This document shows, one piece after another, positions 12,304-60,767 of a stretch of DNA of 64,000 bases. This DNA comes from an uncultured delta proteobacterium (lineage in GTDB: Bacteria; Desulfobacterota; Desulfobacteria; Desulfobacterales; SG8-13). The translations under genes and the position numbers were made by a program. The stretch covers positions 62,001-126,000 of the forward strand of contig CAWKCK010000001.1 of the NCBI GenBank assembly GCA_963848135.1. The letters are read 5' to 3'. The notes beneath the pieces were generated by a model. That model was not told the DNA's origin and did not search any database. It saw only the letters and a program-made list of their open reading frames with translations. Position 1 is the stretch's first letter; each line of letters begins with the position of its first letter.

Positions 12304-13560
12304 TCAGTTCTGATAGCATATTTCCGCATTAGGCCAAGTTGCATGTAACAAATTAAGAATCGAGTCTTTTGCTTGAGCTGTAAATTGCGCTTCTGGACAC
12401 ATAGGGATGCCTGATACTCCAAATACATGAAATTTTGTCTGACCAAACTGCCATAATCCATAATGCAGATGCGAAGATTCATTGAACATCTTCAAGTAGC
12501 CAATGGTATCGCCTTGAGTAATTGTATCACCCAGAGTGACGGAGATATTATCCAATTGATCTTGTCCGGCTTGTGTATTTATCGACATGGTATTAAACGC
12601 GTATTTAGTCGTTAGCGGAATAAAATAACCACCGTCATCGGGATCTACCACATACTCATCACAGGCAATGGATACTTCCACCTGCCAGGTGTCGTCCGTG
12701 GCTGTCTGTTGTAACTGAACAACATCGACCATCCCAGAACAAGCCGACTGAACACCTGCAAGATCATCTTTTGGGTAGATATCTATACCGTCATTCGCAT
12801 AGTCCCAGGGAGAAAAACTATATTGAGAACTAAAGCCGGTTGTAATTTTCGCCATCTCCGACTCACTGGAATAAGGGGCGACGAACAATGGTGGCAATAC
12901 ATCATCGCTATTACACATAATGACATCCTGGTGAGCAACCGCAATCAAATTCATAATAGAATCACGTGCTGCCTGAGTAAAATACGGTTCGGGACAAATT
13001 GGTATGGCGTTTTTATATAATGTAAAGTGCACATGAGCTTTTTCCGGATTCGCAGCCGAATATAGATAGCCGATAATCTCGCCTTGCGCTACCAACTGCC
13101 CTTCTATAACCAAAATGTTATTGTACTGAGTCTGTCCGGTATTCGGTGCCTGGTTTTCAAAGTTATAGCCGATAGTATAAGTAGAATCGCAGTCAATCAG
13201 CACCATTACTTGATCATCGAACGTGTAAATCTTTTTAACTCTCCCGGCACATGCCGACTGATATGCTTTGAGGTTGCCATCGGGATCAACATCCAATCCA
13301 TCATGGATTCTTCCCCAGGGTTCATCGCTGTATTGTGCATTAAAAAAATCGTTTATCTCGCGCATGTCAGAAACACTTGCATACGGGGTAACCAGGTTAA
13401 CCGCTTTTGTCTCTCCCTGTTGATTTTTGTCGTCCAATAATAGTAACAACCAAGGGGTGCTTTTTGTTTCCCCAATAGCAAAAGGGCATGGGAATATGAA
13501 GATAATAACAAATAAATAGGGTAGATATTTTTTGAATAGTGCACTGGAATTTATCTTCAT
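12304..13560 (-). CDS. Exported protein with two tandem M23/LytM peptidase-like domains
   Basis: HDGLD...HVHF and NDGID...HLHY; clear internal duplication; signal peptide; GAGGTG RBS. Confidence 0.75.
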   Translation of the reverse strand: MKINSSALFKKYLPYLFVIIFIFPCPFAIGETKSTPWLLLLLDDKNQQGETKAVNLVTPYASVSDMREINDFFNAQYSDEPWGRIHDGLDVDPDGNLKAYQSACAGRVKKIYTFDDQVMVLIDCDSTYTIGYNFENQAPNTGQTQYNNILVIEGQLVAQGEIIGYLYSAANPEKAHVHFTLYKNAIPICPEPYFTQAARDSIMNLIAVAHQDVIMCNSDDVLPPLFVAPYSSESEMAKITTGFSSQYSFSPWDYANDGIDIYPKDDLAGVQSACSGMVDVVQLQQTATDDTWQVEVSIACDEYVVDPDDGGYFIPLTTKYAFNTMSINTQAGQDQLDNISVTLGDTITQGDTIGYLKMFNESSHLHYGLWQFGQTKFHVFGVSGIPMCPEAQFTAQAKDSILNLLHATWPNAEICYQN

Positions 13561-13579
13561 ATCAATCACCTCTCTCAAT

Positions 13580-13619
13580 AAAAAAAGGCTGAACTACCCC
13601 CACTGGGCGGCTCAGCCTT
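13580..13619 (-). terminator. Intrinsic terminator in the leader of the M23-like gene
   Basis: AAGGCTGAGCCGCCC pairs with GGGTAGTTCAGCCTT, followed by a T tract, about 20 nt before the start codon. Confidence 0.8.
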
Positions 13620-13678
13620 CTGAATATGTAACAGACTTCATACCCCATCCTCCCTCTTTGATGGGTTTGCCTGTTCAG
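13600..13678 (-). promoter_or_regulatory. c-di-GMP-I (GEMM-I)-like riboswitch aptamer candidate, divergent
   Basis: GGCAAACCCATC...GATGGGG-TATGAAG...GGCTGAGCCGCC. The 3' end overlaps the terminator stem. Confidence 0.6.
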
Positions 13679-13774
13679 ATCATTTTCGTGAGTTTATTAT
13701 AAATTCTACCTATCACTACAGTTTGGTTTGTCAATTGCCACAGGGTGGTACTCGATGCATTTATTTTTGTTAAT

Positions 13775-13809
13775 ATCTGCATAATCGCAACAGTTCAGAT
13801 ACGTACAGA
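13775..13809. repeat. 35-bp direct repeat, copy 1 (copy 2 at 17924-17958)
   Basis: ATCTGCATAATCGCAACAGTTCAGATACGTACAGA, 32/35 identical to copy 2. Confidence 0.8.
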
Positions 13810-13924
13810 TGAAATCACAAAAAATCTGCCATTTTAAAAAGTTAAAAATAGCTTGCCAATCTCGTAACTGTCGAAAATGGCGTTGAAACTGCATATACGA
13901 TCTGAGTATCATCGGTTTCGAGGC

Positions 13925-14179
13925 TCAAGTTTTCGAGTCGAGAATGTGCAAGAAGGCTTCGAGAAAAGCCATAGCTGCAAAAAATAAGAACATCCATATA
14001 GGGATTATCATCACCCACGCTAAAGATACAACAGTCCTAAACGCGTCTTCATTGATGCCTTGGAGAAACCACAAACTGGGAACCTGGTAAAACAAGTAAA
14101 CACTACCAGCACCGGATCCGAAAAAGAAGGATATAGCCAGGCATCGATACATTTTTGACCTGTTAAAGATGAATTTCAT
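13925..14179 (-). CDS. Small hypothetical membrane protein (two hydrophobic segments)
   Basis: 84-aa ORF with two TM-like stretches; no family recognised. Confidence 0.4.
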   Translation of the reverse strand: MKFIFNRSKMYRCLAISFFFGSGAGSVYLFYQVPSLWFLQGINEDAFRTVVSLAWVMIIPIWMFLFFAAMAFLEAFLHILDSKT

Positions 14180-14566
14180 TGCTACACGGCTATTTCATAA
14201 AAATTACCTTTTCACGTCCGTTGGAATGGGCAGCTTTTTTGAAAATCATTAAGCAAATAACACTCTGGAATACTAATAGATTGAGACTATATCGATATTA
14301 TTGGGGAGGTCAATACTCAGGACAGCTTGCCAAAAGCACAATCTCTTGAAATCACGTTAAATATCAGGATACCGTTTGGCTAAATTCAGGAAATTCGCCG
14401 GATAATAGGTTCAGGATCATAGCAGATAACGCCTGGTCACCCATCCGGTTGATAGGTTGGAGGTACCAGTAACATAGCAATTAATAGACGGCACCAAGCG
14501 GAGTAAGCGCCAGTGAAGCTCAGCTTCATGCCGTCCGAGTAAAATTGCCCTATTCTATTGTTTTCC

Positions 14567-45763: not shown

Positions 45764-46714
45764 TTAGCGGAAACGCTGCTGCTGCGGTTCCATGATCACC
45801 TTGGTGTCCGGCGGTATGGAACGGGTGATCCACACATTGCCGCCGATGACCGAACGGGCGCCGATGACTGTTTCGCCCCCGAGGATCGTCGCTCCCGAGT
45901 AGATGATGACGTCATCCTCTATGGTCGGATGGCGTTTCTTTCCGCGGAGTTTTTCACCGGCATCCTTGGGCAGTGATAGCGCCCCGAGGGTGACACCCTG
46001 GTATATCCGCACATCGCGACCGATCTCGGTGGTTTCCCCCACCACGATGCCGGTGCCATGGTCAATGCAAAAACGATCACTGATTTTGGCGCCGGGATGA
46101 ATATCGATGCCGGTGATGTTGTGGGCGTGCTCGCTCATGATACGGGGCAGGAGCGGAACCCCGAGATCATATAGCCTGTGAGCCACCCGGTAGACCGTGA
46201 TGGCGAATATCCCCGGGTAGCTGAAAATGATTTCGTCGGTGCTCTTGGCTGCCGGGTCGCCGTCATAGGCCGCCTGGATGTCGGTGGCTAGCGTTCGGCG
46301 GATGGCCGGAATCTCATCGAGCAGGGCCAGGGCGACCTCGTGACCGCGGTCCCGACACTCGCTGCAGGGCTGATCGTAGCGGAAGCAATCGTGGCGAATG
46401 CTCAGACTTACCTGTTCGGAGATCATGTCGAATAGGACCGAGACCGCCTGTCCTAAGTAGTACTTCAGGTTAACCGGATCGAGTTTTTCCCTGGTGAAGT
46501 ATCCCGGAAACAGCACTTCGCGGAATTTTTCAATAATATCGATGACCGATTGTTTGGAGGGAATCGGTTCGTAATCGACGTGGGTGTAGCCTTCATTTCC
46601 GAAGCAGCTGGTGATTATCTTTTCGGCGATGGCCGGCAACCGATCCCTCAGACGTGAATCTGCGGCAGCTTCCATTTTGCAAGAGGCCTCGCTGTGTTCC
46701 TTTGGACTGCCCAT
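45764..46714 (-). CDS. cysE: Serine O-acetyltransferase (EpsC-like long form)
   Basis: [35 protein letters not shown]. Confidence 0.92.
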
Positions 46715-47006: not shown

Positions 47007-47585
47007 ATGAAGAAAAAATATATTATCGGTGCGCTCCTCGTTCTCCTGGGAGTCATGATTTCTTTTCCCCTCTTCAGCATGACTTACTATACCATGGTAC
47101 GAACCTCCACACCGGATTTCTGCGCTTCCTGTCACGAGATCAAACCGGCGGTGAGGGCATGGCACGCCTCGACTCACGCCAACAACGGTGCCGGCGTGGT
47201 GGTGGACTGCATGGATTGCCATCTTCCGGCTCCTCAAAACACCTTCGATTTTCTTTTCGCCAAGACATATCACGGCATCAAGGACGTTGCGCTTCACTTT
47301 ATGGGCGGGGAGTATGACCGTGAAAAAGCCCGCAACGCCGCTTATGCCGCTTTCGAGAATTCCGAGTGTCAAAAATGTCACCGTAACATTCTTTACATGC
47401 CCCAGAGTCGGGGAGCCATGCGGGCCCACCGGTCAGTACTTTACGCCCGACCGGGGTATGAGCTGAAGTGCGTCGATTGCCACTACGACCTGGTTCATAA
47501 CGACAAGACTTCGGTCATGTTCCGCCAGTATCGCGAGGTACCGTACCAGGCCAAGGGCCTTAAACCAGAAAAACTCGGTTACTAA
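47007..47585 (+). CDS. NapC/NirT-family membrane tetraheme cytochrome c
   Basis: N-terminal TM helix, TSTPDFCASCH, four CxxCH motifs. Confidence 0.92.
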   Translation: MKKKYIIGALLVLLGVMISFPLFSMTYYTMVRTSTPDFCASCHEIKPAVRAWHASTHANNGAGVVVDCMDCHLPAPQNTFDFLFAKTYHGIKDVALHFMGGEYDREKARNAAYAAFENSECQKCHRNILYMPQSRGAMRAHRSVLYARPGYELKCVDCHYDLVHNDKTSVMFRQYREVPYQAKGLKPEKLGY

Positions 47586-47617
47586 TAATTGGGTAAGTCC
47601 CTATTTCGAAAGGAGTT

Positions 47618-49030
47618 GTGCCAATGAGGAGAGTATCGTTCCTGCCAGCAATCGGACTGCTACTTGTTGGATTGCTTCTTTACGGCGGTTTTTCGGCAGT
47701 CAATGCTCAGCAGCCGAATTTCCCCGTCGTGAAGGAGTTTCGCATCGAACGCAGTATTCCCCCCCAGGCCGTGGCTTGTATCGAATGCCACCGGGCAACC
47801 ACACCGGGCATATTCGCGGACTGGGCCATGAGTCGGCATGCCAATGCCAATATCACGTGTTTGGATTGCCACCTGGTTCAACCCGGGGAAGAAGACATCG
47901 CCAGAGGGCACGAGAAATACTACGGTCGTTCGGACCTGCCGTACGGCGAAAGTAAATACAAAGTACCGATTGCCTCTATTGTCACCCCCAAGGATTGCTC
48001 GCGCTGCCATCCCGATGAAGCGACCCAATACAGCCGCTCCAAGCACGCCAATACTCTCGAGATCATATGGAAAATCGATCCTTGGCTCAACAAAGGTATG
48101 AACTCCGACAACGAGCGTAAAACCGGTTGTTTCAACTGCCACGGTACGGTGATCACACTCGATGACAAAGGCAATATTGACCCGGCCACCTGGCCGAATG
48201 CCGGTGTGGGGCGACTCAATGTGGACGGCAGCAAGGGGTCGTGTACCTCGTGTCACACCCGCCACCGTTTCTCCATTGCCGAGGCCCGCATGCCGGAAGC
48301 CTGTGACCAATGCCACCTTGGCCCGGATCACCCGCAAATAGAGATCTATAACGAATCCAAGCACGGCACCATGTACCATGCCTACAAGGACGAATATAAT
48401 TTCAAGGCGGCCGCCGGAACGTGGACCGCTGGCGTCGACTATCGCGCGCCGACCTGTGCGGCATGCCACATGTCCGGTTCGGGCAAGGTCATGGGGTCCC
48501 ACGATGTGACCGAACGGCTGTCCTGGGAGACCCAGGCGCCTCTGACCGTGCGGCCGCAGGATTTCAAACCCTTCCCGGCCAAAACCGACTGGCAGACGGA
48601 ACGGGAGAAAATGAAAAACGTTTGCCGCCAGTGCCACGGAGATTCCTGGATCAACGATTTCTACGATGGCTTTGACGAGGCAGTGAAAGAGTACAACGAT
48701 GTCTACTTCAAACCGGCGAAGGCCACCTTGGATGAGCTTTATGAAAAAGGGTTGCTGAGCAAGGAGAAGTTCTTCGACGAACACCTGGAAGTGGAATACT
48801 ATGAACTATGGCATCACGAGGGACGCCGGGCGCGGATGGGTGCCATGATGATGGCCCCCGACTACGCCTGGTGGCACGGTTTCTATGAATGCAAGCTCCG
48901 TTTCAATGCCTATATGGAAGCTGCGGATCACCTGATCAAGACCGGCGAAAAGGCCTACATCTATCCGAATTTCCCCAATGCGACGGGATCGACCCAGCGT
49001 CCCGAAAAAATCTTCGGGCCGCAACAGTAA
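47618..49030 (+). CDS. Octaheme cytochrome c, hydroxylamine oxidoreductase (HAO) family
   Basis: Signal peptide, eight CxxCH motifs, CHTRHRFS, CHLGPDHPQIEIYNESKHG, MAPDYAWWHG. Confidence 0.9.
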   Translation: MPMRRVSFLPAIGLLLVGLLLYGGFSAVNAQQPNFPVVKEFRIERSIPPQAVACIECHRATTPGIFADWAMSRHANANITCLDCHLVQPGEEDIARGHEKYYGRSDLPYGESKYKVPIASIVTPKDCSRCHPDEATQYSRSKHANTLEIIWKIDPWLNKGMNSDNERKTGCFNCHGTVITLDDKGNIDPATWPNAGVGRLNVDGSKGSCTSCHTRHRFSIAEARMPEACDQCHLGPDHPQIEIYNESKHGTMYHAYKDEYNFKAAAGTWTAGVDYRAPTCAACHMSGSGKVMGSHDVTERLSWETQAPLTVRPQDFKPFPAKTDWQTEREKMKNVCRQCHGDSWINDFYDGFDEAVKEYNDVYFKPAKATLDELYEKGLLSKEKFFDEHLEVEYYELWHHEGRRARMGAMMMAPDYAWWHGFYECKLRFNAYMEAADHLIKTGEKAYIYPNFPNATGSTQRPEKIFGPQQ

Positions 49031-50898: not shown

Positions 50899-52278
50899 TC
50901 AACCGCCCCTTTTGATATCGATCGGTGTAATGCCGTGTTTTTTCATCCGTTTCCAGATCGTTACGCGGCTGACGCCCAGGTTGCGGGCGGCTTCCGACTG
51001 GTTGCCGCCGGCTTTCCGGAGGGCATCGAGAAGTTGTTCCTTCTCCTGTTCATCGGCAACACCGCCCCTGATGGCAGCCGGTTCCCGGCATTCACGTTCA
51101 GTGCCTGAAATTTTCGGCGGCAGGTGCTGACGGCCGATCCCGCCTGTCGCGCAGAGCACGAACGCATACTCGACCGCGTTACGAAGCTCGCGCACGTTAC
51201 CGGGCCAACGGTATGTGGTCAGTTTTTCGAGAGCCTCCGGCGACAGCCCTAAAATTTTTTTGCCGGTTTTCTGATTGTTACTGCGAATGAAGCTCTGAAC
51301 GATTATGGGGATGTCTTCTTTGCGGTTCCTCAGCGGCGGACAATTGAGAGGAAAGACGTTAATCCGGAAATAGAGATCTTCCCTGAACGCGCCTTGGTCG
51401 ATCAGTTTCTCTAAATTTTTGTTGGTTGCTGAAATGATGCGGACATCTATTTTTATGGGCGTGTGGTCACCCACCCGCTCAATCTCCTTTTCCTCCAAGA
51501 CCCGTAGCAGTTTTACCTGGGTCACCAGGGGGATGTCTCCGATTTCATCCAGGAAAATCGTACCCCCGTGGGCGGCCTCAAAACGGCCAATTCGGGTACG
51601 TTCCGCGCCGGTGTAAGCACCTCTGGTATGGCCGAAAAGCTCGCTCTCCAGCAGGTTTTCGTTCAGCGCCGCGCAGTTGACCTTTATGAACGGCTCGTTG
51701 CGCCGCTGTCCGGCCTCATGAACGGCACGGGCCACCAGTTCCTTGCCGGTGCCGCTCTCCCCGTGGATCATCACCGGTGATTCGGTCTGGGCAACGTTGT
51801 CGATGAGCTCGTAAAGATCCTGCATGGCCGGGGATCTGCCAAGGATGCCATGGTACCCCTCCTCCATGTGTAGCGTTTTGCGAAGGGTGACGATTTCCTG
51901 CTGCTGGCGGACAATCTGTGACATGTCCGTGAGCGTTTCGATCGCCCCGATGACCCTGCCGTCTTTGTCCTTCAGAATTGTGGCATTCTTGATGATGTTG
52001 ACTGCCCGATGATCCTTGTGCGTGATCAGGCATTTTTTTGCGCGCACATCGCCGCGGGCATAAAGGCCGCACCATTTTTCGGCGGGCCCTTTGCCGAAGA
52101 TTTCACAGCCCGTGCAATCCAGAATACGGCACGATTTTCCGATGAGTTCTTTGGCGCGGTATCCGGTCATCCGCTCAGCGGATGGGTTGACGGCGATGAC
52201 TTTGCCGCTGGGATCGACAACCAGAACGCCGTCCATGAGAGTCTCGAAGATTGTTTTCCAGTGTTTTGAAAGATCCAT
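50899..52278 (-). CDS. Sigma-54-dependent activator (PAS-AAA-HTH)
   Basis: PAS domain with three Cys (CRILDCTGC), GESGTGKE, ESELFGH..GAYTGA, WPGNVREL, Fis-type HTH. Start uncertain (52278-52329). Confidence 0.95.
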   Translation of the reverse strand: MDLSKHWKTIFETLMDGVLVVDPSGKVIAVNPSAERMTGYRAKELIGKSCRILDCTGCEIFGKGPAEKWCGLYARGDVRAKKCLITHKDHRAVNIIKNATILKDKDGRVIGAIETLTDMSQIVRQQQEIVTLRKTLHMEEGYHGILGRSPAMQDLYELIDNVAQTESPVMIHGESGTGKELVARAVHEAGQRRNEPFIKVNCAALNENLLESELFGHTRGAYTGAERTRIGRFEAAHGGTIFLDEIGDIPLVTQVKLLRVLEEKEIERVGDHTPIKIDVRIISATNKNLEKLIDQGAFREDLYFRINVFPLNCPPLRNRKEDIPIIVQSFIRSNNQKTGKKILGLSPEALEKLTTYRWPGNVRELRNAVEYAFVLCATGGIGRQHLPPKISGTERECREPAAIRGGVADEQEKEQLLDALRKAGGNQSEAARNLGVSRVTIWKRMKKHGITPIDIKRGG

Positions 52279-52343
52279 GTCGATTCCGTTTTTTGTAGAC
52301 GATGAGGCGACTTGGTGACGACGGTTCAATGTGTAACTGTTAA

Positions 52344-52359
52344 GTTAACACCTGTTAAC
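52344..52359. promoter_or_regulatory. Candidate upstream activator site 1 (GTTAAC-N4-GTTAAC)
   Basis: GTTAACACCTGTTAAC, the exact reverse complement of 53549-53564. Confidence 0.75.
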
Positions 52360-52445
52360 ATAGTGCCCTGCCGACCTACGTGCAAGGTTTTTCTTTAAAA
52401 TCATTTTTGTATTTATTTTAGGCTGTTATCATTTTGACCAGGATG

Positions 52446-52461
52446 TGGCACGCTTGTTGCT
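52446..52461 (+). promoter_or_regulatory. Sigma-54 -24/-12 promoter 1
   Basis: TGGCACGCTTGTTGCT fits TGGCAC-N5-TTGC. Confidence 0.85.
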
Positions 52462-52529
52462 CAGTTTTCTGAGAGCGTCTCATCATCAGGGCTTGAAGGT
52501 CAGTAACACCACAACAGGATAGGTGGGAA

Positions 52530-52820
52530 ATTATCATACAAAAGGCAGCCATACTCGTCAGCAACGCCGCGCGGTTGCAAGAAGGGCTGCTTGCCGGAAA
52601 ATCACTCACCCTCGATGGCATGCATGTTCAAATCGTGCTGGCCGATTCAACAACGAACCCGGCTGATATCGATATAGACGCCATCTTTGATCAAGGATCC
52701 CGGGAGGCCCTGCGCTTCACCAACCGCATGGATATTGCCGACCGGATTGGTTTTCAACATGCCACGCTCACGCAGATCGCGAGCATTCTCAAAGATGCCG
52801 ATGTGGTCATTCCTTTTTAA
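52530..52820 (+). CDS. DsrE/DsrF-fold small protein; start codon unclear
   Basis: Open frame KAAILVSNAARLQEGL...DADVVIPF. A GTG at 52523 is one base out of frame. Confidence 0.55.
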   Translation: MIIQKAAILVSNAARLQEGLLAGKSLTLDGMHVQIVLADSTTNPADIDIDAIFDQGSREALRFTNRMDIADRIGFQHATLTQIASILKDADVVIPF

Positions 52821-52829
52821 AAGATGAAC

Positions 52830-52989
52830 GTAAGCATTCACAGGGCACCGCATCTGCTTTGTTGTCGGACACTTGAAGTACAAGAAATTACGTCTGCGCA
52901 CCCGACGCCTTGCATCTGCGTCACCCTGTAAATGCTTACAAATAGGTGACTTGATGCACATTGGACGTTGCAACCCTGAGAGCGGCTAC
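52830..52989. mobile_element. MITE (IS66-like ends), copy 1, with 8-bp target duplication AGATGAAC
   Basis: Ends GTAAGCATTCACAGGG and CCCTGAGAGCGGCTAC. AGATGAAC at 52822-52829 and 52990-52997. Second copy at 60819. Confidence 0.85.
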
Positions 52990-52991
52990 AG

Positions 52992-53180
52992 ATGAACAAG
53001 CTTTTACATATTCTGAGATCGGAACCGAGCGATACCGTTCGGGAGCTCATCGAGGCCATGTCCGGGGACGAGGGGGTCACTGTTGCCGTATTGTATCCGG
53101 ATGATATCGCTCGGGCCCCGATTAACTGGCAGCGTCTGGTCGACGATATATTTGCCAGCGAAAAAGTTATCTGTTGGTAA
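52992..53180 (+). CDS. DsrH/TusB-like small protein
   Basis: MNKLLHILRSEP...INWQRLVDDIFASEKVICW; size and C-terminus resemble DsrH-like proteins. Confidence 0.6.
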   Translation: MNKLLHILRSEPSDTVRELIEAMSGDEGVTVAVLYPDDIARAPINWQRLVDDIFASEKVICW

Positions 53181-53232
53181 TCGAACTGGTTACGCAATCC
53201 GCTCGTATGTCATTTATACTGCAAAAAATATT

Positions 53233-53529
53233 ATGGAAAAACTCGGGATTCTGATTAATTCTACCGCCCACGTCCAAGCGGCCATTCAGCTGGCCTGTGC
53301 GGCCAGGGAAACGGGCAAGACCGTCGAGATTTTTCTGGCTGCCCGAGGGGTTCGAATCCTGGAAAACATGAATGTCAGCCATCTTTCCACGATTGGCCCG
53401 GTGTGGGTCTGTTCAGCCAGTTTCGAGGCCCTGGGGACCGGCCACGCGCTGCCGCTGGCGTGTCGCCTGGTGCCACCGGAAAATTTGGCGGAATTTCTCC
53501 GTTCGTGTGACCGTCACGTGGTCTTTTAA
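53233..53529 (+). CDS. DsrE/TusD-like protein
   Basis: MEKLGILI, AARETGKTVEIFL...GVRIL, Cys in VWVCSAS, C-terminal DRHVVF. Confidence 0.7.
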   Translation: MEKLGILINSTAHVQAAIQLACAARETGKTVEIFLAARGVRILENMNVSHLSTIGPVWVCSASFEALGTGHALPLACRLVPPENLAEFLRSCDRHVVF

Positions 53530-53548
53530 CCTGGGATGAAATTAACAA

Positions 53549-53564
53549 GTTAACAGGTGTTAAC
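53549..53564. promoter_or_regulatory. Candidate upstream activator site 2
   Basis: GTTAACAGGTGTTAAC, about 90 bp before promoter 2. Confidence 0.75.
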
Positions 53565-53652
53565 ACTCCCGGCGGCAATGCCGGGCGAGCAGAAATTGAA
53601 TAAAACATATTGTTTCAGGTTGTTAGGAAAGAATGAGACGCGTTCGCCATTA

Positions 53653-53668
53653 TGGCACATGGGTTGCA
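53653..53668 (+). promoter_or_regulatory. Sigma-54 -24/-12 promoter 2
   Basis: TGGCACATGGGTTGCA fits TGGCAC-N5-TTGC. Confidence 0.85.
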
Positions 53669-53769
53669 CTACATACCGAAACATATACAAAGATCGCTGT
53701 CCGCCGCGACAGCCCGGAATGTTAATAGCTCATAGAATAAAGCACCCAATAAGAAAGGAGTTCGTAACA

Positions 53770-54111
53770 ATGAAGAGGATGTTGATGTTTTTTCTGGCCG
53801 CCGTTATTTCAGTCAGTTTTGTCGGTGCCGCCGTGGCGATCGAGCAGGGCAATAAGCGCAAAGGAAAGTATATCTACCGCAAGGTCTACAAGGCCTGTAA
53901 CGAGCGTGGTGAGGTCGATACGCCCAAGCCGCCCTTGAACCCGGATGCCAAGACCCAGGCCCAGTGGACCCAGGTGTTCGAGCAAGGAAAATTCGACGAA
54001 TTCGGTTGTAAACAGGAATGGGACCAGCTCTCCGAAGAAGATAAATCAAATATTTATACCTATCTATACGCGCATGCCTCCGATTCCCCGACACCTTTGA
54101 AATGCAAGTAA
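53770..54111 (+). CDS. Exported cytochrome-c-like small protein without a CxxCH motif
   Basis: AAGGAG RBS, signal peptide, GNKRKGKYIY class-I cytochrome-like start, YKACN where CxxCH is expected, C-terminal PLKCK. Confidence 0.7.
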   Translation: MKRMLMFFLAAVISVSFVGAAVAIEQGNKRKGKYIYRKVYKACNERGEVDTPKPPLNPDAKTQAQWTQVFEQGKFDEFGCKQEWDQLSEEDKSNIYTYLYAHASDSPTPLKCK

Positions 54112-54180
54112 AGGCATGTAGCAACTTTAGCCAAATGGATTCTGCGCCAACCGAAACCTAACCCAATAAATGGAGGAAGC

Positions 54181-55319
54181 ATGAAAGTCCGTAAACCGAA
54201 TTTACTGATTGTATTGACGAGCCTGGTTCTGGCAGCCGCGCTGGTTGGTTGCTCATCCACACCGAAGGCCGAACCGCAAGCGGCAGCGGCGCCGCAGTTC
54301 GAGAAATACCATGACATCGTCGACGTGAAATTTGTGATGGACTACGTCACCGTGCCGATGGCTGAGGATGTGATGATCATCGATGCCCGTCCCAAGCGGG
54401 CCAAATACGATAAGGGCCACATTCCGGGCGCTGTGAGCATTCCTGACAGCCAATTCGACAAAATGGTTGACCAACTGCCCGCAAACAAAGATGCTTTGCT
54501 GATTTACTACTGCGGCGGCCTGAAATGCCCCTTGAGCCACAAGTCCGCTTTCAAGGCCGAGAAACTGGGTTACACCAACGTTAAAGTATTTGCCGAAGGC
54601 TTTCCGAAATATATGAAAGTTGCCGGCAATTACCCTGCCGTTTCCGTCGAGTGGGTCAAAGCCGAATTGGACAAGGGTGCAGACATCGTCGTAATCGATG
54701 CCCGCCCGAAAAAAAAGAAGTACGACAAGGGTCACATTCCGGGCGCCATCAGCATTCCGGACAGCCAGTTCGCGAAATACACGGATCAGCTGCCGGCTGA
54801 CAAAAGCAAAACCCTGGTGTTCTACTGCGGCGGTTTTAAATGCCCGCTGAGTCACAAATCCGCTAAAAAAGCGCTCGAAATGGGGTACACAAGCGTAAAA
54901 GTATTCGATGCCGGGTATCCCGGCCTGGGTGGCGTATGCCGGCAAGGACAGCACGGTTAAGGCCACCGCCATCAAATCCGGCGGCGAGGAAGGCAGCATC
55001 GACAACGACCTGTTCACCAAGATCGTCAAAGAGGACCCCTCCAGCATCTACATCATTGACGTCAGGGACCCGGCCGAGTTTGCCACCGGCAGCTTTAAGA
55101 CCGCCAAAGAATATTCCGGTGGATCAACTCGAAGCCAAAATACCGAGTCTGCCCGCCACCAAGCCGATTGTGTTTGTTTGCGGAACAGGCGCGCGAAGTG
55201 GTGAAGCCTACTACATGGTTCAAGACGTCAGGCCGGAACTGAAGGAAGTCTACTACGTGGAAGCGGAGATTGCCTTCAGTAAGGACGGATCCTTCAAACT
55301 GACCAAGATCGCGCAGTAA
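54181..55319 (+). CDS. Triple-rhodanese-domain lipoprotein (apparent +1 frameshifts near 54920 and 55107)
   Basis: Lipobox LVGC. Two similar domains IDARP...GHIPGA...YCGGxKCPLSHK, and a third IDVRD...FVCGTGAR. Three ORF pieces join to about 378 aa. Confidence 0.88.
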
Positions 55320-55338
55320 TTTTGTAGAATCAACCAAC

Positions 55339-55374
55339 CGTGCGGCCGAATTGCCGGCCGCACGAATTCTTTTT
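55339..55374 (+). terminator. Intra-operon hairpin with T-rich tail
   Basis: CGTGCGGCCG-AATTGC-CGGCCGCACG followed by AATTCTTTTT. Confidence 0.6.
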
Positions 55375-55404
55375 ACTTTCGGAAGAAACCCCCGGGAGAG
55401 TCTG

Positions 55405-57036
55405 ATGAAATCTGCGAAATACGTTTACTTCACCCTCACACTCTGCAGCCTGCTGTCGTTGCTGGTCGTCGGGCCGTCATTTGTTACTGCCGGGGAAGAG
55501 GAAACCGAAAATGCCCCCGGTCGGGTGATGGCCCGTCAAGCCACCAAGGAGAAACAACTGTGGATCACGGCCGATCATTCCAAGCATGAGGCCTTGAAGA
55601 AGACCTTTGCCAGTGGACCGGAAATTACCAAGGCATGCCTGTCCTGCCATTCCGAAGCCGAAGCACAATTTCACAAAACCATTCATTGGAAGTGGATGGT
55701 ACCGGGGACTGAAGACAGTGATCAGGTTGGCAAGGCCGGTTATTCGCTAAACAATTTCTGCATATCCACCAACAAAAACGCGGACAACAGCTGCCTGGCC
55801 TGCCACCCGGGCTGGGGTACGTCCACCGAGGCCATCAATTGCCTGGTCTGCCACGGTCAGCAAACCATCAATTGGGACGAGGCCTTTGAGGACATGCAGT
55901 TCTTTATGAGTGAGGCCGAAGAGGACGAGGAGTCCAAAGAGATGGCCGAGGACCTCCAGACCCAGATTCAGAGCGCCGTTCAGGCCGTGGGGCGACCCAC
56001 TCGCAAGAATTGTGGCTCCTGTCATTTTTACGGCGGGGGGGGTGACGGTGTGAAGCACGGCGATTTGGATTCGTCGTTGACCAAACCCAACAAAGCCTTG
56101 GATGTGCATATGGGTGTCGATGGCCAGAACTTTGACTGCGTTCGCTGCCATACCACCCAGCTCCATAACATTGCCGGGCGGATGTACACGGCGCCGGCCT
56201 ATACCGAGCGCAAGAGTTTGATCGAGGACGACCTGACCGCTAAGATTACCTGTGAATCCTGTCACAGCGCGACACCGCATGAAAGCGGGCACAAAGCCAA
56301 TGATCACACTGACAAGGTGGCCTGTCAAACCTGCCACATCCCAACCCTTGCCCGGGTAAATCCGACCAAGATGTCCTGGGACTGGTCCCAGGCCGGTAAG
56401 AAAAAAGACGGTAAACCATACAAAACCAAGGACGAATTCGGAAAATATGACTACATGTCCATCAAGGGTCAAATGAAATGGGCCAAGAACGTTCAGCCTG
56501 AGTATTTCTGGTTCAACGGGTCGATTGCTTCGAGGTCCACCAGGGATACCATCGATCCCAGCCAGGCGGTAGCCGTCAGTGAGCCGGCCGGCAACCGGCA
56601 AGACCCGAACGCCCGTATTTTCCCCTTTAAAATACACCGCGGTGTACAGCCGTATGACAAGGTGCATAAAACACTGCTGGCACCCCTTCTTTCCGGTGAT
56701 GACGGCTACTGGAAAACACTCGACTGGGACCGGGCCCTGACCAAGGGGCAGGAATCTCTCGGTCTGCCGTTTTCCGGGGAGTTTGATTTCGTTGAGACCA
56801 CATACGTGTTTCCATCTACCCACATGGTGGCGCCCAAAGACACCGTGGTTTCTTGCAGTGAGTGCCACGTCGGCGAGGGCGGCCGAATGGAAAAACTGAC
56901 CGGTTTTTATATGCCGGGCAGGGACAAGTGGCGGCTTATCGATACCATGGGTTGGGTACTGGTACTCGGATCGCTTCTGGGTGTCGTCCTGCACGGATTG
57001 GGCCGCGTGTTCACCAACGGCAGGAAGGAGAAATAG
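55405..57036 (+). CDS. Octaheme tetrathionate reductase (Otr)-family cytochrome c with C-terminal membrane anchor
   Basis: TADHSK, eight CxxCH motifs, NNFC, GGGGDGVKHGDLDSSL, PTKMSWDWS, C-terminal TM helix. Confidence 0.9.
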   Translation: MKSAKYVYFTLTLCSLLSLLVVGPSFVTAGEEETENAPGRVMARQATKEKQLWITADHSKHEALKKTFASGPEITKACLSCHSEAEAQFHKTIHWKWMVPGTEDSDQVGKAGYSLNNFCISTNKNADNSCLACHPGWGTSTEAINCLVCHGQQTINWDEAFEDMQFFMSEAEEDEESKEMAEDLQTQIQSAVQAVGRPTRKNCGSCHFYGGGGDGVKHGDLDSSLTKPNKALDVHMGVDGQNFDCVRCHTTQLHNIAGRMYTAPAYTERKSLIEDDLTAKITCESCHSATPHESGHKANDHTDKVACQTCHIPTLARVNPTKMSWDWSQAGKKKDGKPYKTKDEFGKYDYMSIKGQMKWAKNVQPEYFWFNGSIASRSTRDTIDPSQAVAVSEPAGNRQDPNARIFPFKIHRGVQPYDKVHKTLLAPLLSGDDGYWKTLDWDRALTKGQESLGLPFSGEFDFVETTYVFPSTHMVAPKDTVVSCSECHVGEGGRMEKLTGFYMPGRDKWRLIDTMGWVLVLGSLLGVVLHGLGRVFTNGRKEK

Positions 57037-57038
57037 CC

Positions 57039-57713
57039 ATGGAACGCAAGAGAATGGTCAACATATATCTTTACACCCGTTATGAGCGTTTCTGGCACTG
57101 GCTGCAGAGCGCGATCATCATTCTGTTGTTGATCACCGGTTTTGAAGTTCACAGCAGCTTCAGCCTCATGGGTTTTCGATCTGCTGTGAATATTCACAAC
57201 TATGTCGGACTTGGGTGGCTGATCCTTTTCGCGTTTTTCGTTTTCTGGGTCTTGACCACCGGCGAGTGGCGTCAGTACGTTCCCACCACCCGTAAGATGC
57301 TCCTGGTGGTCCGTTACTATAGCTACGGGATTTTCCGCGGTGAACCGCACCCGGTTCCCAAGCGCAAAGAGGCCAAGCACAACCCCCTGCAGCGATTGGT
57401 CTATCTGTCTCTGGCGGCCCTGCTGCTGCCGATTCAGATGGTTTCCGGCTTTCTCTACTGGAGCTACAATTCCTGGCAGGGTTGGGGGCTGGATTGGTTG
57501 TCGCTGCAAGTCGTCGCGATGGTTCACATGGCTGGGGCATTCGCCATTCTTTCCTTTCTTGTCGTACACCTCTATATGATTACCACCGGGCACACGATTT
57601 CCGCCCACACCCGGGCCATGATCACCGGCTGGGAAGAAGTGGGTGAGGACACACAAATTGAGGACTGGGAACAAAAGGTCCGCAAGGGCACGGAACCGCA
57701 GCCGGCCAATTGA
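57039..57713 (+). CDS. Di-heme cytochrome b membrane subunit (PhsC/FdnI/HyaC-like)
   Basis: ERFWHW, IHNY, HNPLQRL, VHM...VHLY; four TM segments. Confidence 0.9.
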   Translation: MERKRMVNIYLYTRYERFWHWLQSAIIILLLITGFEVHSSFSLMGFRSAVNIHNYVGLGWLILFAFFVFWVLTTGEWRQYVPTTRKMLLVVRYYSYGIFRGEPHPVPKRKEAKHNPLQRLVYLSLAALLLPIQMVSGFLYWSYNSWQGWGLDWLSLQVVAMVHMAGAFAILSFLVVHLYMITTGHTISAHTRAMITGWEEVGEDTQIEDWEQKVRKGTEPQPAN

Positions 57714-57796: not shown

Positions 57797-57888
57797 GAAT
57801 GCGGAATTTGGATTTAAGGAATTCTGTCTGATTTATTAAGGAAAGAGCGAAGCGATACCGCGAATCCAAAATCCAAAATCCAAAATCA
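57797..57888. repeat. Degenerate short tandem repeats in inverted arrangement
   Basis: TTTGGAATGCGGAATTTGGATTT ... AATCCAAAATCCAAAATCCAAAATC. Confidence 0.55.
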
Positions 57889-57989
57889 AGGATATGCTGT
57901 GGGTAACGGAATATTATTCTGATACCCATTATACAAAGGCGGTATCGACAGCCGATCTCGCTGTCGTATTTTCTGATCCGCACCTCCTG

Positions 57990-58278: not shown

Positions 58279-58740
58279 ATGAACTTTGAATCGATCGAGG
58301 AGATTCTGGAATTCGCCATTGAAAAGGAAAAAGAAGCGGCGGCTTTCTACGATGAAGTGGCCCAGCAGGAAGCTTTCAGCGGGACCAAGAAAACTTTCCA
58401 GGAATTTGCGGCCGAGGAGCGCAAACACCAGGCCATGCTGGAAGACTTCGAAGGCAACAAGTTGAAGATTAAAACTTACACGCTCAAGTGGGTTCCGGAT
58501 ATGAAGCGCAGTGATTACATGGTGGAGATGAAGTATGAAAAGGGGATGCACTATGCGGATATCGTCCGCCTGGCCATGAAGCGCGAAGAGGCGGCCCTGG
58601 CCCTTTACAACGAGATGCAAAGAAAGACCGACAAAGAGGAGTACATCCGGCTGTTTAAGATTCTGGCCCAGGAAGAAGCCAAGCACAAGCAGTATTTGGA
58701 AACCATATATGACGACTTCATGGCCGAGCAAGGGGATTAG
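58279..58740 (+). CDS. Rubrerythrin/ferritin-like diiron protein
   Basis: AIEKEKEAAAFY, EERKH, AMKREE, EEAKH. Confidence 0.9.
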   Translation: MNFESIEEILEFAIEKEKEAAAFYDEVAQQEAFSGTKKTFQEFAAEERKHQAMLEDFEGNKLKIKTYTLKWVPDMKRSDYMVEMKYEKGMHYADIVRLAMKREEAALALYNEMQRKTDKEEYIRLFKILAQEEAKHKQYLETIYDDFMAEQGD

Positions 58741-58763
58741 GCCGAAAAATACGACTCACCGAC

Positions 58764-60140
58764 ATGCAAAACTCAGGAGGGATATCTCCGATAGGTGATC
58801 TCAAGGTGTTCCAGCTGCGCTACCCCTTGATGGTGCTCATTGTTGGTGCGGCCGCCCTGTTTTTGGCAGGGGCCATGTCGATCCCTTTCTTCTTTGAATC
58901 ACCTTCCCTGTGGTACAAGTTCGGCTTTGCCAAAGTCCTGTTGCGGAGCGGTAAAGTATTCGGCATGGCTGCCGCGACACTGCTTTTTTTCCAAATGATC
59001 CTGGTTGGCCGCCTTAAGGTGTTGGACCGGGTCTTTTCACTACCCGGTTTGGTCCGCACCCACCGAATTAACGCCATCGCCATCCTTCTGCTGGCATTGT
59101 TACACCCCCTATTCGTTCTGACTTCAGAGAACAAATTGACCATCCCACTGGAGATACGTTACTGGCCGGAGTGGGTCGGCGTTAGCCTACTGGTTGTCAT
59201 CGTTATCCAATTCTCGTCGAGCCAATGGCGTAATGCCTTGCGAATTAATTATCATCGCTGGCTTTTACTGCATCGTTGCGTCGGCGTCTTGATCATTTGT
59301 CTCGTGACCCTTCACATCCTGTTTGTCAGTGAAACCTTTTCCGAAAAGGGTTTTCCCCGTGACGCGGTTATCCTATCGGCTGTTCTTCTCGTTTTATTGT
59401 GGCTGTGGATCCGTTCAGGCTGGCTGCGCGCAAGAAAAAGGCCTTTTAGCGTGACCCGGGTTGCACCCGAGGGCATTAGCAGCGTCAATATCGAACTGAG
59501 CCCGGTTGATAAACGGCCGTTTCGATATGTTCCGGGCCAGTTCGTCATCGTGTCCTTTCAGTCAAAGCACATTTCCCCAGAGCCGCACCCATTTACGCTT
59601 TCATCGACACCAACCCGTCCGGAAAACCTGCAGTTGACCGTGCGGACCAATGGAGATTGGACCCGACACGTCGCCCGGATTGCCGTGGGGGAACGGGTCT
59701 ATGTTCAAGGCCCGTTCGGACGGTTCAGCCATGTGTTTACCGATCCGGCACGCGAGATCATCATGATCGCCGGCGGTATCGGTATCACCCCCATGTTGAG
59801 TATGATGCGCTTCATGGCCGATCGGCAGGATCAGCGTGTCATAACCCTGATCTGGAGCAATCGATCCCGGGAACATATGGTCTACCCGGACGAACTGAAC
59901 GAATTGGGGGAGAATTTGACAGGATTTCGATCAGAACTTATTTTTACCGGTAATTCAGATGAGTGGCTTTCCAGCGAGGGCCTGAATCTGGACAAACTGC
60001 AATCGATGCTTCAAGGATTCAGCCGCCATGCATCAGTCTTCGTGTGCGGCCCGGAACAAATGATGAAACAGATTAAAAGCGACCTAAAGCGAATCGGTTT
60101 CGAACCTCGCTCGATCCGCACGGAAACTTTCGGCTTCTGA
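58764..60140 (+). CDS. Ferric-reductase-like membrane domain fused to FAD/NAD(P)-binding FNR domain
   Basis: TM helices with His residues; HPFTLSS, GPFG, AGGIGITP, VCGP, ETF. Confidence 0.88.
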   Translation: MQNSGGISPIGDLKVFQLRYPLMVLIVGAAALFLAGAMSIPFFFESPSLWYKFGFAKVLLRSGKVFGMAAATLLFFQMILVGRLKVLDRVFSLPGLVRTHRINAIAILLLALLHPLFVLTSENKLTIPLEIRYWPEWVGVSLLVVIVIQFSSSQWRNALRINYHRWLLLHRCVGVLIICLVTLHILFVSETFSEKGFPRDAVILSAVLLVLLWLWIRSGWLRARKRPFSVTRVAPEGISSVNIELSPVDKRPFRYVPGQFVIVSFQSKHISPEPHPFTLSSTPTRPENLQLTVRTNGDWTRHVARIAVGERVYVQGPFGRFSHVFTDPAREIIMIAGGIGITPMLSMMRFMADRQDQRVITLIWSNRSREHMVYPDELNELGENLTGFRSELIFTGNSDEWLSSEGLNLDKLQSMLQGFSRHASVFVCGPEQMMKQIKSDLKRIGFEPRSIRTETFGF

Positions 60141-60169: not shown

Positions 60170-60767
60170 ATGAAATTAGATATTAAACGAATGACAGTTT
60201 TGTTGGTACTTATGGTTCTTATCTCGCCGGCGCATGCCGCTGGCCCCGAATGGAAACTCGATCCCTCTCACTCTGGGATCTTTTTCGAGATTGATCATAT
60301 CTACTCTGCCACACGGGGTTATTTCGAGAAGTTCAACGGTAAGGTAATTTTCACCCCCGACAACCTGGGCGGAAGCAGTTTTGACTTTAAGGTTGAGGTG
60401 AAAAGTATCAATACCGGGAACAGCAAGCGCGACGGCCATCTCCAAACCGAGGAATTTTTTGACGCCAAGAAATTTCCGGCTATGACCTTTAAAAGTGTCG
60501 CCGTCAAAAAGGTTGAGGGTGATCAATACATGCGTCGAGGGCACAATGACCATCAAGGACGTCAGCAAGAACCTTTCGGTTCCGTTTACCTTCTACGGGG
60601 TAAAGCCCCATCCATTCGATGAAAAAAGCGAAGTGGCCGGTTTCGAAGCCCGCATGACCATCGACCGACTGGAGTACAACGTCGGTAGCGGCAAATACTA
60701 CGAAATGGGAGTGGTGGGCAAAGACGTGGATGTTCTCATTTCGTTCGAAGCGACCCGAAAAAAATGA
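60170..60767 (+). CDS. YceI-family periplasmic protein (apparent +1 frameshift near 60532)
   Basis: Signal peptide, WKLDPSHS, SINTGNSKRDGHL, FPAMTFKS; continues VEGTMTIKDV...IDRLEY in the shifted frame. Confidence 0.88.

Follow-up and report, generated by a model that had tools for sequence, protein, structure and literature searches.

The Otr family of octaheme cytochromes c carries a conserved lysine and cysteine at its catalytic heme (bioRxiv 2023.04.20.537704). Purified Otr proteins are reported to work best on nitrite and hydroxylamine (PMC12949373, PMC4484225) and to have very low activity with tetrathionate (PMC12949373). In sediment, otr transcripts rose 36-fold with tetrathionate (PMC8528874). 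What Otr acts on in nature has been an unsettled question since 2004. Tetrathionate respiration in Shewanella is ruled out by a deletion study of 2026: deletion of otr in strain ANA-3 left tetrathionate use unchanged, with a hint of sulfite reduction (PMC12949373). A polysulfide reductase mechanism built on selenocysteine (Sec), cysteine and heme has been proven for a different multiheme cytochrome, MccSep (PMC13510729), and the enzymes of sulfur disproportionation are described as unresolved (PMC12998232, PMC13490349). Here, we describe an otr gene cluster at positions 50899-57713 of a 64,000-nucleotide stretch of DNA (the window), which is part of contig C1 in the genome of an uncultured member of the Desulfobacterales (6.03 Mb, 18 contigs, 98.65% complete).

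The cluster comprises a PAS-AAA+-HTH activator gene on the minus strand and seven genes on the plus strand. It probably, though far from certainly, represents a pared-down version of a sigma-54 cassette that Desulfobacterales use for sulfur compounds in intermediate oxidation states. A first-pass annotation of the DNA had proposed a sulfur role; three observations support such a role over a purely nitrogen-directed one: YeeE, TusA and DsrEFH are encoded in the same cassette, a PhsA-like enzyme can replace Otr, and Sec can occupy the active-site cysteine position of Otr. The features, with lengths in amino acids (aa) and with dN/dS as the ratio of non-synonymous to synonymous substitution rates, are:

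50899..52278, minus strand: sigma-54 activator, PAS-AAA+-HTH, 459 aa (Pfam PAS, Sigma54_activat and HTH_8)
52344..52359, no strand: enhancer 1, GTTAAC-ACCT-GTTAAC, predicted activator binding site (motif search)
52446..52461, plus strand: sigma-54 promoter 1, TGGCAC-N5-TTGCT (12/12 match)
52536..52820, plus strand: DsrF type II-like gene, 94 codons, no Cys, start ATA (profiles; dN/dS ~0.45)
52828..52935, no strand: palindromic repeat of REP-like type, 108 bp, within unit 1 (44 near-full genome copies)
52992..53180, plus strand: DsrH type II-like gene, 62 aa (profiles; dN/dS ~0.09, well conserved)
53233..53529, plus strand: DsrE type II-like gene, 98 aa, Cys60 kept (PF02635; dN/dS ~0.32)
53549..53564, no strand: enhancer 2, GTTAAC-AGGT-GTTAAC (motif search)
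53653..53668, plus strand: sigma-54 promoter 2, TGGCAC-N5-TTGCA (11/12 match)
53770..54111, plus strand: exported relic of a class I cytochrome c, 113 aa, without CxxCH (Cys43, Cys80 and Cys112 invariant)
54181..55319, plus strand: lipoprotein (LVG-C24) with three rhodanese domains (two probable assembly frameshifts in the window)
55339..55364, plus strand: 10-bp GC stem-loop between the rhodanese gene and otr (sequence)
55405..57036, plus strand: Otr-family octaheme cytochrome c, 543 aa, signal peptide, C-terminal membrane helix (TIGR04315)
57039..57713, plus strand: four-helix di-heme cytochrome b, predicted quinone-reactive anchor (PF01292)

Otr and its cytochrome b

The enzyme at the centre of the cluster scores 531.9 bits against TIGR04315 (cut-off 375), carries eight CxxCH motifs (at 78, 130, 146, 203, 245, 283, 307 and 484) and ends in a hydrophobic segment (residues 511-529), which agrees with the membrane-anchored Otr-family octaheme recognized in the first-pass annotation. 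Its only match in the PDB, by sequence (E 1.6e-96) and by fold, is Otr of Shewanella oneidensis (1SP3); the model, computed without hemes, is of middling confidence (pLDDT 69). K110 and C119 (codon 55759-55761) are invariant in 59/59 sequences. In a HMMER alignment, C119 falls on the NNFC cysteine of 1SP3 and K110 lies one column off the GK lysine. Presumably, both residues act at catalytic heme II.

The adjoining cytochrome b was likewise correctly assigned. It matches PF01292, has four hydrophobic segments and keeps four histidines in 60/60 homologs; the nearest NCBIfam model is PhsC (113.7 bits, below the cut-off of 204). The dN/dS values of the core genes are 0.07-0.09. As read from their sequences, Otr is exported and anchored in the membrane beside cytochrome b, and the rhodanese lipoprotein and the heme-less relic are exported with it. 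Neither a molybdopterin nor an iron-sulfur (Fe-S) subunit is encoded between 50899 and 57713, so that the reported lack of a molybdopterin subunit stands.

Conservation of the cassette

Two sets of loci were compared. The Otr set holds 84 matches from other genomes (79 + 10 loci; six matches shorter than 380 residues were dropped), with each feature counted only at loci with enough flank. The small-cytochrome set holds 60 of 115 matches to the small exported protein (strong ones with usable flanks), chosen independently of Otr and partly overlapping the Otr set. In these and all other comparisons, the loci are kin rather than independent samples.

At Otr identities of at least 61.5%, the neighbours are cytochrome b (33/34), the rhodanese (34/37), the small cytochrome (34/36), the activator (20/27), the DsrFHE-like trio (12/33) and DUF3373 (5/27). 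Between 50 and 61.5% identity, cytochrome b (29/30) and the activator (17/24) persist, with the rhodanese in 1/29 loci and the trio in 1/26. Because activator, otr and cytochrome b keep together in both bands, they constitute the core; in many loci they stand without any sulfur gene. The rhodanese and the small cytochrome mark a single Otr clade (44 rows, support 100, FastTree). Co-conservation, on which the first-pass annotation had staked its proposal, therefore applies to the cytochrome relic, rhodanese, Otr and cytochrome b within that clade. It fails for the rhodanese outside the clade, though Otr and cytochrome b keep the same activator there, and for the DsrEFH-like unit, which is accessory to Otr loci (13/67).

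The small cytochrome family occurs in 98/201 genomes of the order. In 11/60 small-cytochrome loci, the activator is followed by porin-yeeE-tusA-F-H-E-cytochrome-(rhodanese)-otr-cytochrome b, and L064 and L130 have this order too. Here, YeeE and TusA are named by their best NCBIfam matches, which lie below cut-off, and DUF3373 by Pfam; the latter has been listed with a putative porin family (PMC4827864). No nitrogen-oxide gene appeared inside the operons, where the neighbours encode YeeE, TusA, DsrE-like, rhodanese or PhsA-like proteins.

The copy in the window has no porin, yeeE or tusA in the cluster. YeeE has no match in this 98.65% complete genome, a DUF3373 porin was not found in it, and its tusA lies outside the cluster. 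To call the module self-contained, as had been done, was thus an overstatement.

Further neighbours occur at some loci. In L083 (6409-8115), a 568-aa flavoprotein with a rhodanese domain, which we take to be CoA-persulfide-reductase-like from its motif, lies directly upstream of otr. A serine acetyltransferase-like gene is found upstream in the window (45764-46714, minus strand) and likewise in L037, L039, L040, L042 and L049; in L042 and L049, cysK-cysE-like genes directly adjoin the activator-otr unit.

A PhsA-like enzyme in the Otr position

The small-cytochrome set permits the enzyme position to be followed across relatives. After a heme-less small cytochrome, the enzyme is Otr in 40/42 loci; after a small cytochrome with CxxCH, it is a PhsA-like molybdoenzyme in 12/18 and Otr in 3/18. 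Six of the 12 PhsA-like loci have no Otr upstream. Five loci (L206, L207, L216, L220 and L223) read (porin)-cytochrome-PhsA-like-Fe-S-rhodanese and show no Otr over the length retrieved; for the L206 enzyme, the best-scoring model is PhsA (562 bits, cut-off 694), and an Fe-S subunit and an FdnI-type cytochrome b follow. The Phs-type cassette has a cytochrome b that is only remotely similar to the window's (24.6 bits), which suggests that the anchor was swapped along with the enzyme.

The PhsA-like cassettes stand under the same activator family. Their activators keep the five cysteines described below, have 1-2 GTWWAC half-sites and fall in three places inside a 35-member clade of Otr-linked activators (FastTree, many inner forks open). 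Together, these data point to sulfur-bond chemistry for the enzyme that fills this slot.

Otr and a molybdoenzyme can also share one operon. In L091 (3281-12222), an Fe-S protein precedes an NrfD-like region joined to Otr (1092 aa, 12 CxxCH), followed by a CxxCH cytochrome, a PhsA-like protein, an Fe-S subunit and a TGA-type rhodanese. Such shared-operon runs are also present in L092, L205, L215, L217, L219, L221 and L222.

Selenocysteine at the active-site positions

Among 90 matches, of which three come from this genome, residue 119 of Otr is encoded as Cys in 81 and as TGA in 9, and never as anything else. For the rhodanese (n=41), TGA stands for the second Cys of loop 1 (position 116) in 12 sequences and for that of loop 2 (position 221) in 8, but never for the first Cys of either loop or the Cys of domain 3. 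Every such TGA is followed, 15-18 bases downstream, by a hairpin with a G-loop that resembles a selenocysteine insertion sequence (SECIS). These hairpins are more stable than those after Cys codons, at nominal P values of 0.001-0.009 that are inflated by kinship. The window's own Otr and rhodanese use Cys.

A rhodanese gene does not directly precede any of the nine Sec-type otr genes, and Sec is absent from all 38 of the closest Otr, which have the rhodanese directly upstream. This inverse link, resting on one clade, is suggestive. GenBank annotation of Sec-type Otr as a selenoprotein is already on record (PMC13188914), and our literature search found no study of it. Gene callers split the Sec forms of Otr and rhodanese at the TGA.

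L005 has two otr genes in tandem: the second (12857-14518), which has TGA at the active-site Cys, comes immediately after the Cys-type copy, and each has its own cytochrome b. The host genome has a MccSep/ExtKL homolog with an in-frame TGA on contig C17 (1115340-1116482; L095, L099), alone and without ext cluster genes; it is the only pentaheme match over cut-off (NF040886) in the genome, outside the window.

The small exported protein and the rhodanese lipoprotein

The small protein that opens unit 2 had been described as exported and cytochrome-like. It is exported and weakly resembles class I cytochromes, and it lacks a heme-binding motif: YKACN stands at the place where some homologs carry CxxCH. 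None of its 120 best homologs has CxxCH, 12/120 have the His, and 118 have exactly three mature cysteines; CxxCH occurs in 18/60 more distant copies. The sequence matches PF13442 at E 0.005. For the structural model (pLDDT 80), the top fold matches are nearly all class I cytochromes and weak (Foldseek E 1.1; VIA Z 4.9, root-mean-square deviation 3.0, 61 residues aligned). Because distant copies carry CxxCH and the model is weakly like class I cytochromes, we regard the protein as a cytochrome relic, and it is evidently unable to bind heme c in the usual way.

The lipoprotein has the three rhodanese domains assigned to it earlier, with two C-x4-C loops and one single-Cys loop, CGTGARS. It is not one open frame in the window, which has extra single bases near 54919-54922 and 55109. 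Both bases are missing from near-identical contigs of 4/4 sequencing runs, and three of the four closest relatives (L004, L005 and L007) have it as a single 378-aa frame; in L003, it is broken at a different place. The frameshifts are most likely assembly errors, and on these two grounds the gene is treated as intact and the possibility of a true pseudogene is rejected. The best NCBIfam match is the selenoprotein TsoB (99 bits, cut-off 805). The ExtH model (NF040901, cut-off 200) is not reached either by the window piece (31.7 bits) or by the intact L007 protein (41.3 bits). A complex prediction for Otr (56-505) with the intact L007 rhodanese gave no answer (score 0.00 twice), which is evidence neither way. 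In many relatives, stem-loops of other sequence lie between the rhodanese gene and otr, counted without a shuffle control.

One activator for two promoters

The proposal of a Cys-containing PAS activator divergent from two sigma-54 units is confirmed by the Pfam domains and by two -24/-12 sites. Between 45 and 62 kb, the sites at 52446 and 53653 are the sole sigma-54 sites scoring at least 10 of 12, and relatives with unit 1 have a site matching promoter 1. About 100 bases 5' of each promoter lies GTTAAC-N4-GTTAAC. This motif was read from these two sites, and its restriction to them among the 367 sigma-54-like sites of the genome shows only that no other site shares it. In relatives, at least two GTWWAC half-sites occur 5' of 31/43 promoters, as compared to a mean of 0.17 and a maximum of 3 in shuffles; the 43 promoters come from 34/40 rows, after exclusion of L050, of the second copy in L005 and of four rows lacking a site. 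Consistent with the co-regulation suggested earlier, the two promoters thus have a common enhancer. Where a relative carries the trio, there are usually two promoters or a single long operon; where the trio is missing, there is one promoter. Taken in aggregate, the sequence evidence indicates that one activator with a dedicated enhancer, at which its binding is predicted, drives both promoters. A scan for sigma-70 promoters gave a chance-level result (10 found; shuffle mean 6.5). Contigs from RNA runs X11 and X18 extend over all four unit-2 genes, although contigs cannot show transcription or its level, and the want of long pieces across unit 1 carries no weight as evidence.

The PAS domain of the activator carries the pattern C-x4-C-x2-C-x11-C-x12-C, and Cys50, 55, 58, 70 and 83 are kept in 47-48 of 48 related activators. 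The domain is a probable Fe-S or metal/persulfide sensor. We take part of the pattern to resemble the C-x2-C-x11-C of NreB, a likeness for which a literature search found no paper.

Two further five-Cys PAS activators are encoded in the genome. One, on contig C3 (255784-259400; L090), is divergent from a distant Otr-like protein of 641 aa, which has ten CxxCH, scores 298.9 bits (under the TIGR04315 cut-off) and lies close to a nine-heme lipoprotein. The other, on contig C7 (129576-130970; L098), is split over two open reading frames upstream of an Fe-S protein of TAT type and two membrane proteins.

The small trio

Unit 1 had been read as DsrF-, DsrH- and DsrE-like. The homology to DsrEFH type II holds, and only the product of 53233-53529 passes Pfam DsrE (25.9 bits, cut-off 22.7); the DsrF- and DsrH-like proteins have no match in Pfam or NCBIfam. 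Profiles built from the window's trio and its neighbours, searched over 151 genomes, find all three genes in 24/30 loci, several of them arranged yeeE-tusA-E-F-H, and such clusters are met throughout the phylum. This arrangement is that of DsrEFH type II in the YTD cluster (PMC13293266), and the small trio is, on profiles and gene order, homologous to the published DsrEFH type II. Cys60 of the DsrE-like protein, its predicted sulfur carrier, is invariant in 12/12 and by position would be equivalent to Cys67 of DsrE.

Computed against three relatives, dN/dS is 0.45 for the DsrF-like and 0.32 for the DsrE-like gene, versus 0.05-0.09 for the DsrH-like and all eight other tested genes. By this measure, the DsrF and DsrE copies are under relaxed selection and eroding. 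The DsrF-like gene starts with ATA here and with ATG in L003, L004 and L007. Between the first two small genes sits the 108-bp repeat, which has high depth and whose shown copies are 91-96% identical. The DsrH-like gene remains under strong purifying selection (0.09) while its partners relax. A second DsrEFH type II-like trio lies on contig C5 (503653-504626; L097) in the order E-F-H, with tusA and yeeE not adjacent.

Host genome and neighbouring genes

DsrA, DsrD, AprA and SelA of the host all score over their family cut-offs. NarG is encoded as well; NrfA and NapA have no match over cut-off in the host genome. It encodes a PhsA-like protein elsewhere (500 bits).

Upstream of the cluster, at 47007-49030 (plus strand), a NapC/NirT tetraheme gene is followed by one for a Hao-like cytochrome with eight CxxCH (PF13447), a candidate nitrite reductase; no sigma-54 site scoring at least 10 accompanies this pair. 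Downstream, 58279-60140 (plus strand) encodes a rubrerythrin-like protein and a ferric-reductase-like membrane FAD/NAD protein, which lie beside otr only in close relatives. A short ATCCAAA-type repeat (57835-57900), of which five weaker copies occur elsewhere, is located 3' of the cytochrome b gene. A YceI-family gene at 60170-60767 (plus strand) has a frameshift, probably another assembly indel.

Proposed function and alternatives

The reading towards which we lean is that the core is a molybdenum-free, quinol-fed periplasmic reductase of thiosulfate or polysulfide, with direction and substrate predicted. As such, it would be a molybdenum-free analogue of PhsABC/PsrABC. The PhsA-like swap, the fusion with YeeE-TusA-DsrEFH, the TGA codons, the mechanism of MccSep, the rise of otr transcripts with tetrathionate, the low dN/dS of the core genes, and DsrA, DsrD, AprA and SelA in the host speak for this reading. 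Menaquinol would be oxidised at cytochrome b, and the Otr hemes would relay electrons to the catalytic heme with its Lys ligand, where Cys119 (Sec in some homologs) may help cleave the S-S bond of thiosulfate or polysulfide. The products would be sulfide and, from thiosulfate, also sulfite. The rhodanese loops could capture and present sulfane sulfur; the rhodanese Sud presents sulfur to Psr. In the full cassette, the DUF3373 porin would admit the substrate and YeeE-TusA-DsrEFH type II would carry part of the sulfur to DsrC, as the oxidative half of disproportionation. Because the porin and YeeE have been lost and DsrE and DsrF are eroding here, the periplasmic reductase is probably the working part in this genome. 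As acceptors, thiosulfate and polysulfide lie below menaquinol, and in Salmonella, PhsABC reportedly draws on the proton motive force by way of a cytochrome b of this kind.

Several observations weigh against a thiosulfate or polysulfide reductase. Otr in vitro prefers nitrite and hydroxylamine, and otr deletion was without effect on tetrathionate use (PMC12949373). A genome with NarG and without NrfA or NapA needs a nitrite sink, and this genome's own Sec-type MccSep and PhsA-like protein could already perform the reduction suggested here. In the 50-61.5% band, Otr and cytochrome b remain under the same activator with almost no rhodanese (1/29) or DsrE-like (1/26) partner. The swapped PhsA-like protein scores below its family cut-off, so its PhsA function is itself predicted. 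Finally, Otr and the PhsA-like enzyme are not strictly exclusive, because seven loci hold both: in six, the PhsA-like gene lies downstream of an NrfD-linked Otr, and L214 is the seventh.

A more ambitious extension, which we regard as possible and rather doubtful, makes the whole cassette a single-regulon engine for sulfur disproportionation. Otr would be interchangeable with PhsAB, the path from porin through YeeE, TusA and DsrEFH would lead to DsrC, Sec would have moved from Otr to the rhodanese, and the heme-less cytochrome would be a Cys carrier or a structural subunit.

The same parts could run in the opposite direction, with Otr-cytochrome b as a heme-based sulfide:quinone oxidoreductase (SQR). 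Sulfane sulfur would then pass from the rhodanese through YeeE-TusA-DsrEFH type II to DsrC and on to a reversed DsrAB, with nitrate (NarG) or oxygen as the sink. Electron transfer from sulfide to menaquinone runs downhill, and by way of the four-helix cytochrome b it would charge the membrane. DsrEFH type II hands sulfur on to DsrC in one direction and is proposed to act in sulfide oxidation after SQR (PMC13293266), the full YeeE-TusA-DsrFHE set stands in the otr operon of the 11/60 loci above, and NarG is in the genome. However, YeeE was not found here, DsrE and DsrF erode while Otr and the rhodanese are strongly conserved, the trio accompanies just 13/67 Otr loci, and the enzyme that takes the place of Otr has its best score with PhsA, which is a reductase family. 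Together, this makes the oxidative direction unlikely.

A nitrogen-directed role is improbable. Otr-cytochrome b would be a quinol-linked reductase of nitrite, hydroxylamine or NO, for ammonification or detoxification, with the sulfur genes carried along in a general redox-stress regulon whose sensor is an Fe-S PAS domain. The best in vitro substrates (PMC12949373, PMC4484225), NarG without NrfA, the many core loci without sulfur genes, and the nearby rubrerythrin and NapC/Hao-like pair fit this role. In contrast, Sec at position 119 and in the rhodanese loops points to thiol chemistry, the operon neighbours are of sulfur type with no nitrogen-oxide gene among them, and the NapC and Hao-like octaheme at 47007-49030 offers an alternative nitrite sink with a different promoter type.

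Equally hard to credit is a non-respiratory periplasmic thiol/selenol-disulfide reducing chain, in which Otr would re-reduce the C-x4-C/U loops of the rhodanese. These in turn would serve to reduce selenite, tellurite or organic disulfides, or to mend excessively persulfidated proteins of the envelope. Those loops resemble redox-active dithiol sites, TsoB is the best NCBIfam match of the rhodanese (99 bits, cut-off 805), the heme-less cytochrome has three invariant cysteines, and MccSep also reduces selenite (PMC13510729); such a chain nonetheless leaves the YeeE-TusA-DsrEFH fusion, the porin and the PhsA-like swap unexplained. Least probable of all is a periplasmic sulfite reductase or scavenger like SirA/MccA, clearing sulfite from thiosulfate cleavage by rhodanese or Phs: the slight sulfite build-up in an ANA-3 ttr-otr mutant, for which sulfite reduction was suggested (PMC12949373), and the seven loci with both Otr and PhsA-like genes, which fit a two-step thiosulfate-to-sulfide chain, are set against a host that already has DsrAB, a Sec-type nucleophile chemistry that in MccSep is inactive on sulfite (PMC13510729), and cassettes that mostly carry Otr without Phs.

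Each part of the cassette comes from a known family. What the cassette adds is a tie between Otr and the YTD/DsrEFH type II genes, with a PhsA-like enzyme in the same slot under the same regulator; a literature search, in which subscription journals were mostly not covered, found no description of the cassette, the enhancer or the swap. If thiosulfate or polysulfide reduction is the true function, many otr genes scored as nitrite or tetrathionate reductases in sediment metagenomes mark a molybdenum-free thiosulfate/polysulfide step. If the disproportionation engine is real, Otr would be assigned a physiological job and a missing branch of disproportionation would be placed in up to about half of the order's genomes, since the small cytochrome family is in 98/201. 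The cassette is testable through one catalytic Cys, one enhancer and one activator, and cultured Desulfosarcina species carry parts of it. Desulfosarcina widdelii has the heme-less cytochrome and is recorded as a carrier of YeeE-TusA-DsrEFH type II that reduces thiosulfate and S0 (PMC13293266), and D. variabilis has a 70% identical Otr.

Comparison with known systems

OrpR (DVU2106; PMC8359166) is like the activator in its PAS-AAA+-HTH architecture, its conserved PAS cysteines and its position divergent from its target promoters. Its PAS triad is C52/C61/C65 (C-x8-C-x3-C), whereas the window activator has five cysteines at other spacing; its binding site is GGGCGYRTTTTGCGCCC, as compared to the predicted GTTAAC-N4-GTTAAC, and its targets differ. 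An assignment of the activator as OrpR was rejected on the Cys spacing and the binding site.

The YTD/DsrEFH type II systems (PMC13293266, PMC12998232) share with unit 1 three small genes and one conserved Cys in DsrE. They differ in that the window order is F-H-E, neither tusA nor yeeE is beside the trio, and DsrE and DsrF are relaxed. The text of these two sources, as available in part, makes no mention of Otr or an octaheme beside the YTD cluster.

MccSep (ExtKL) of Geobacter sulfurreducens is, like Otr here, a multiheme cytochrome, and it has the Cys/Sec chemistry on S-S bonds that is proposed for Otr; its ext cluster likewise has a rhodanese-like lipoprotein (ExtH) and a porin (ExtI) (PMC13510729). 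MccSep belongs to a pentaheme family unrelated to Otr, and the window rhodanese has a low score to ExtH.

Otr of S. oneidensis (1SP3; TIGR04315) has the same eight CxxCH motifs and the conserved Lys and Cys at the catalytic heme. It is soluble and presumed to receive its electrons from CymA by way of STC (PMC4484225, PMC12949373). The window Otr differs by its C-terminal membrane helix and by its genetic company: a cytochrome b of its own, a heme-less cytochrome, a rhodanese lipoprotein and a sigma-54 activator.

PhsABC and PsrABC resemble the cluster in having a periplasmic enzyme and, as predicted for the window, a quinone-reactive cytochrome b and a rhodanese helper, and in sister loci a PhsA-like enzyme fills the Otr slot. 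In contrast to them and to TtrABC, the window cluster has no molybdopterin or Fe-S subunit, and its catalytic centre would consist of heme and Cys/Sec.

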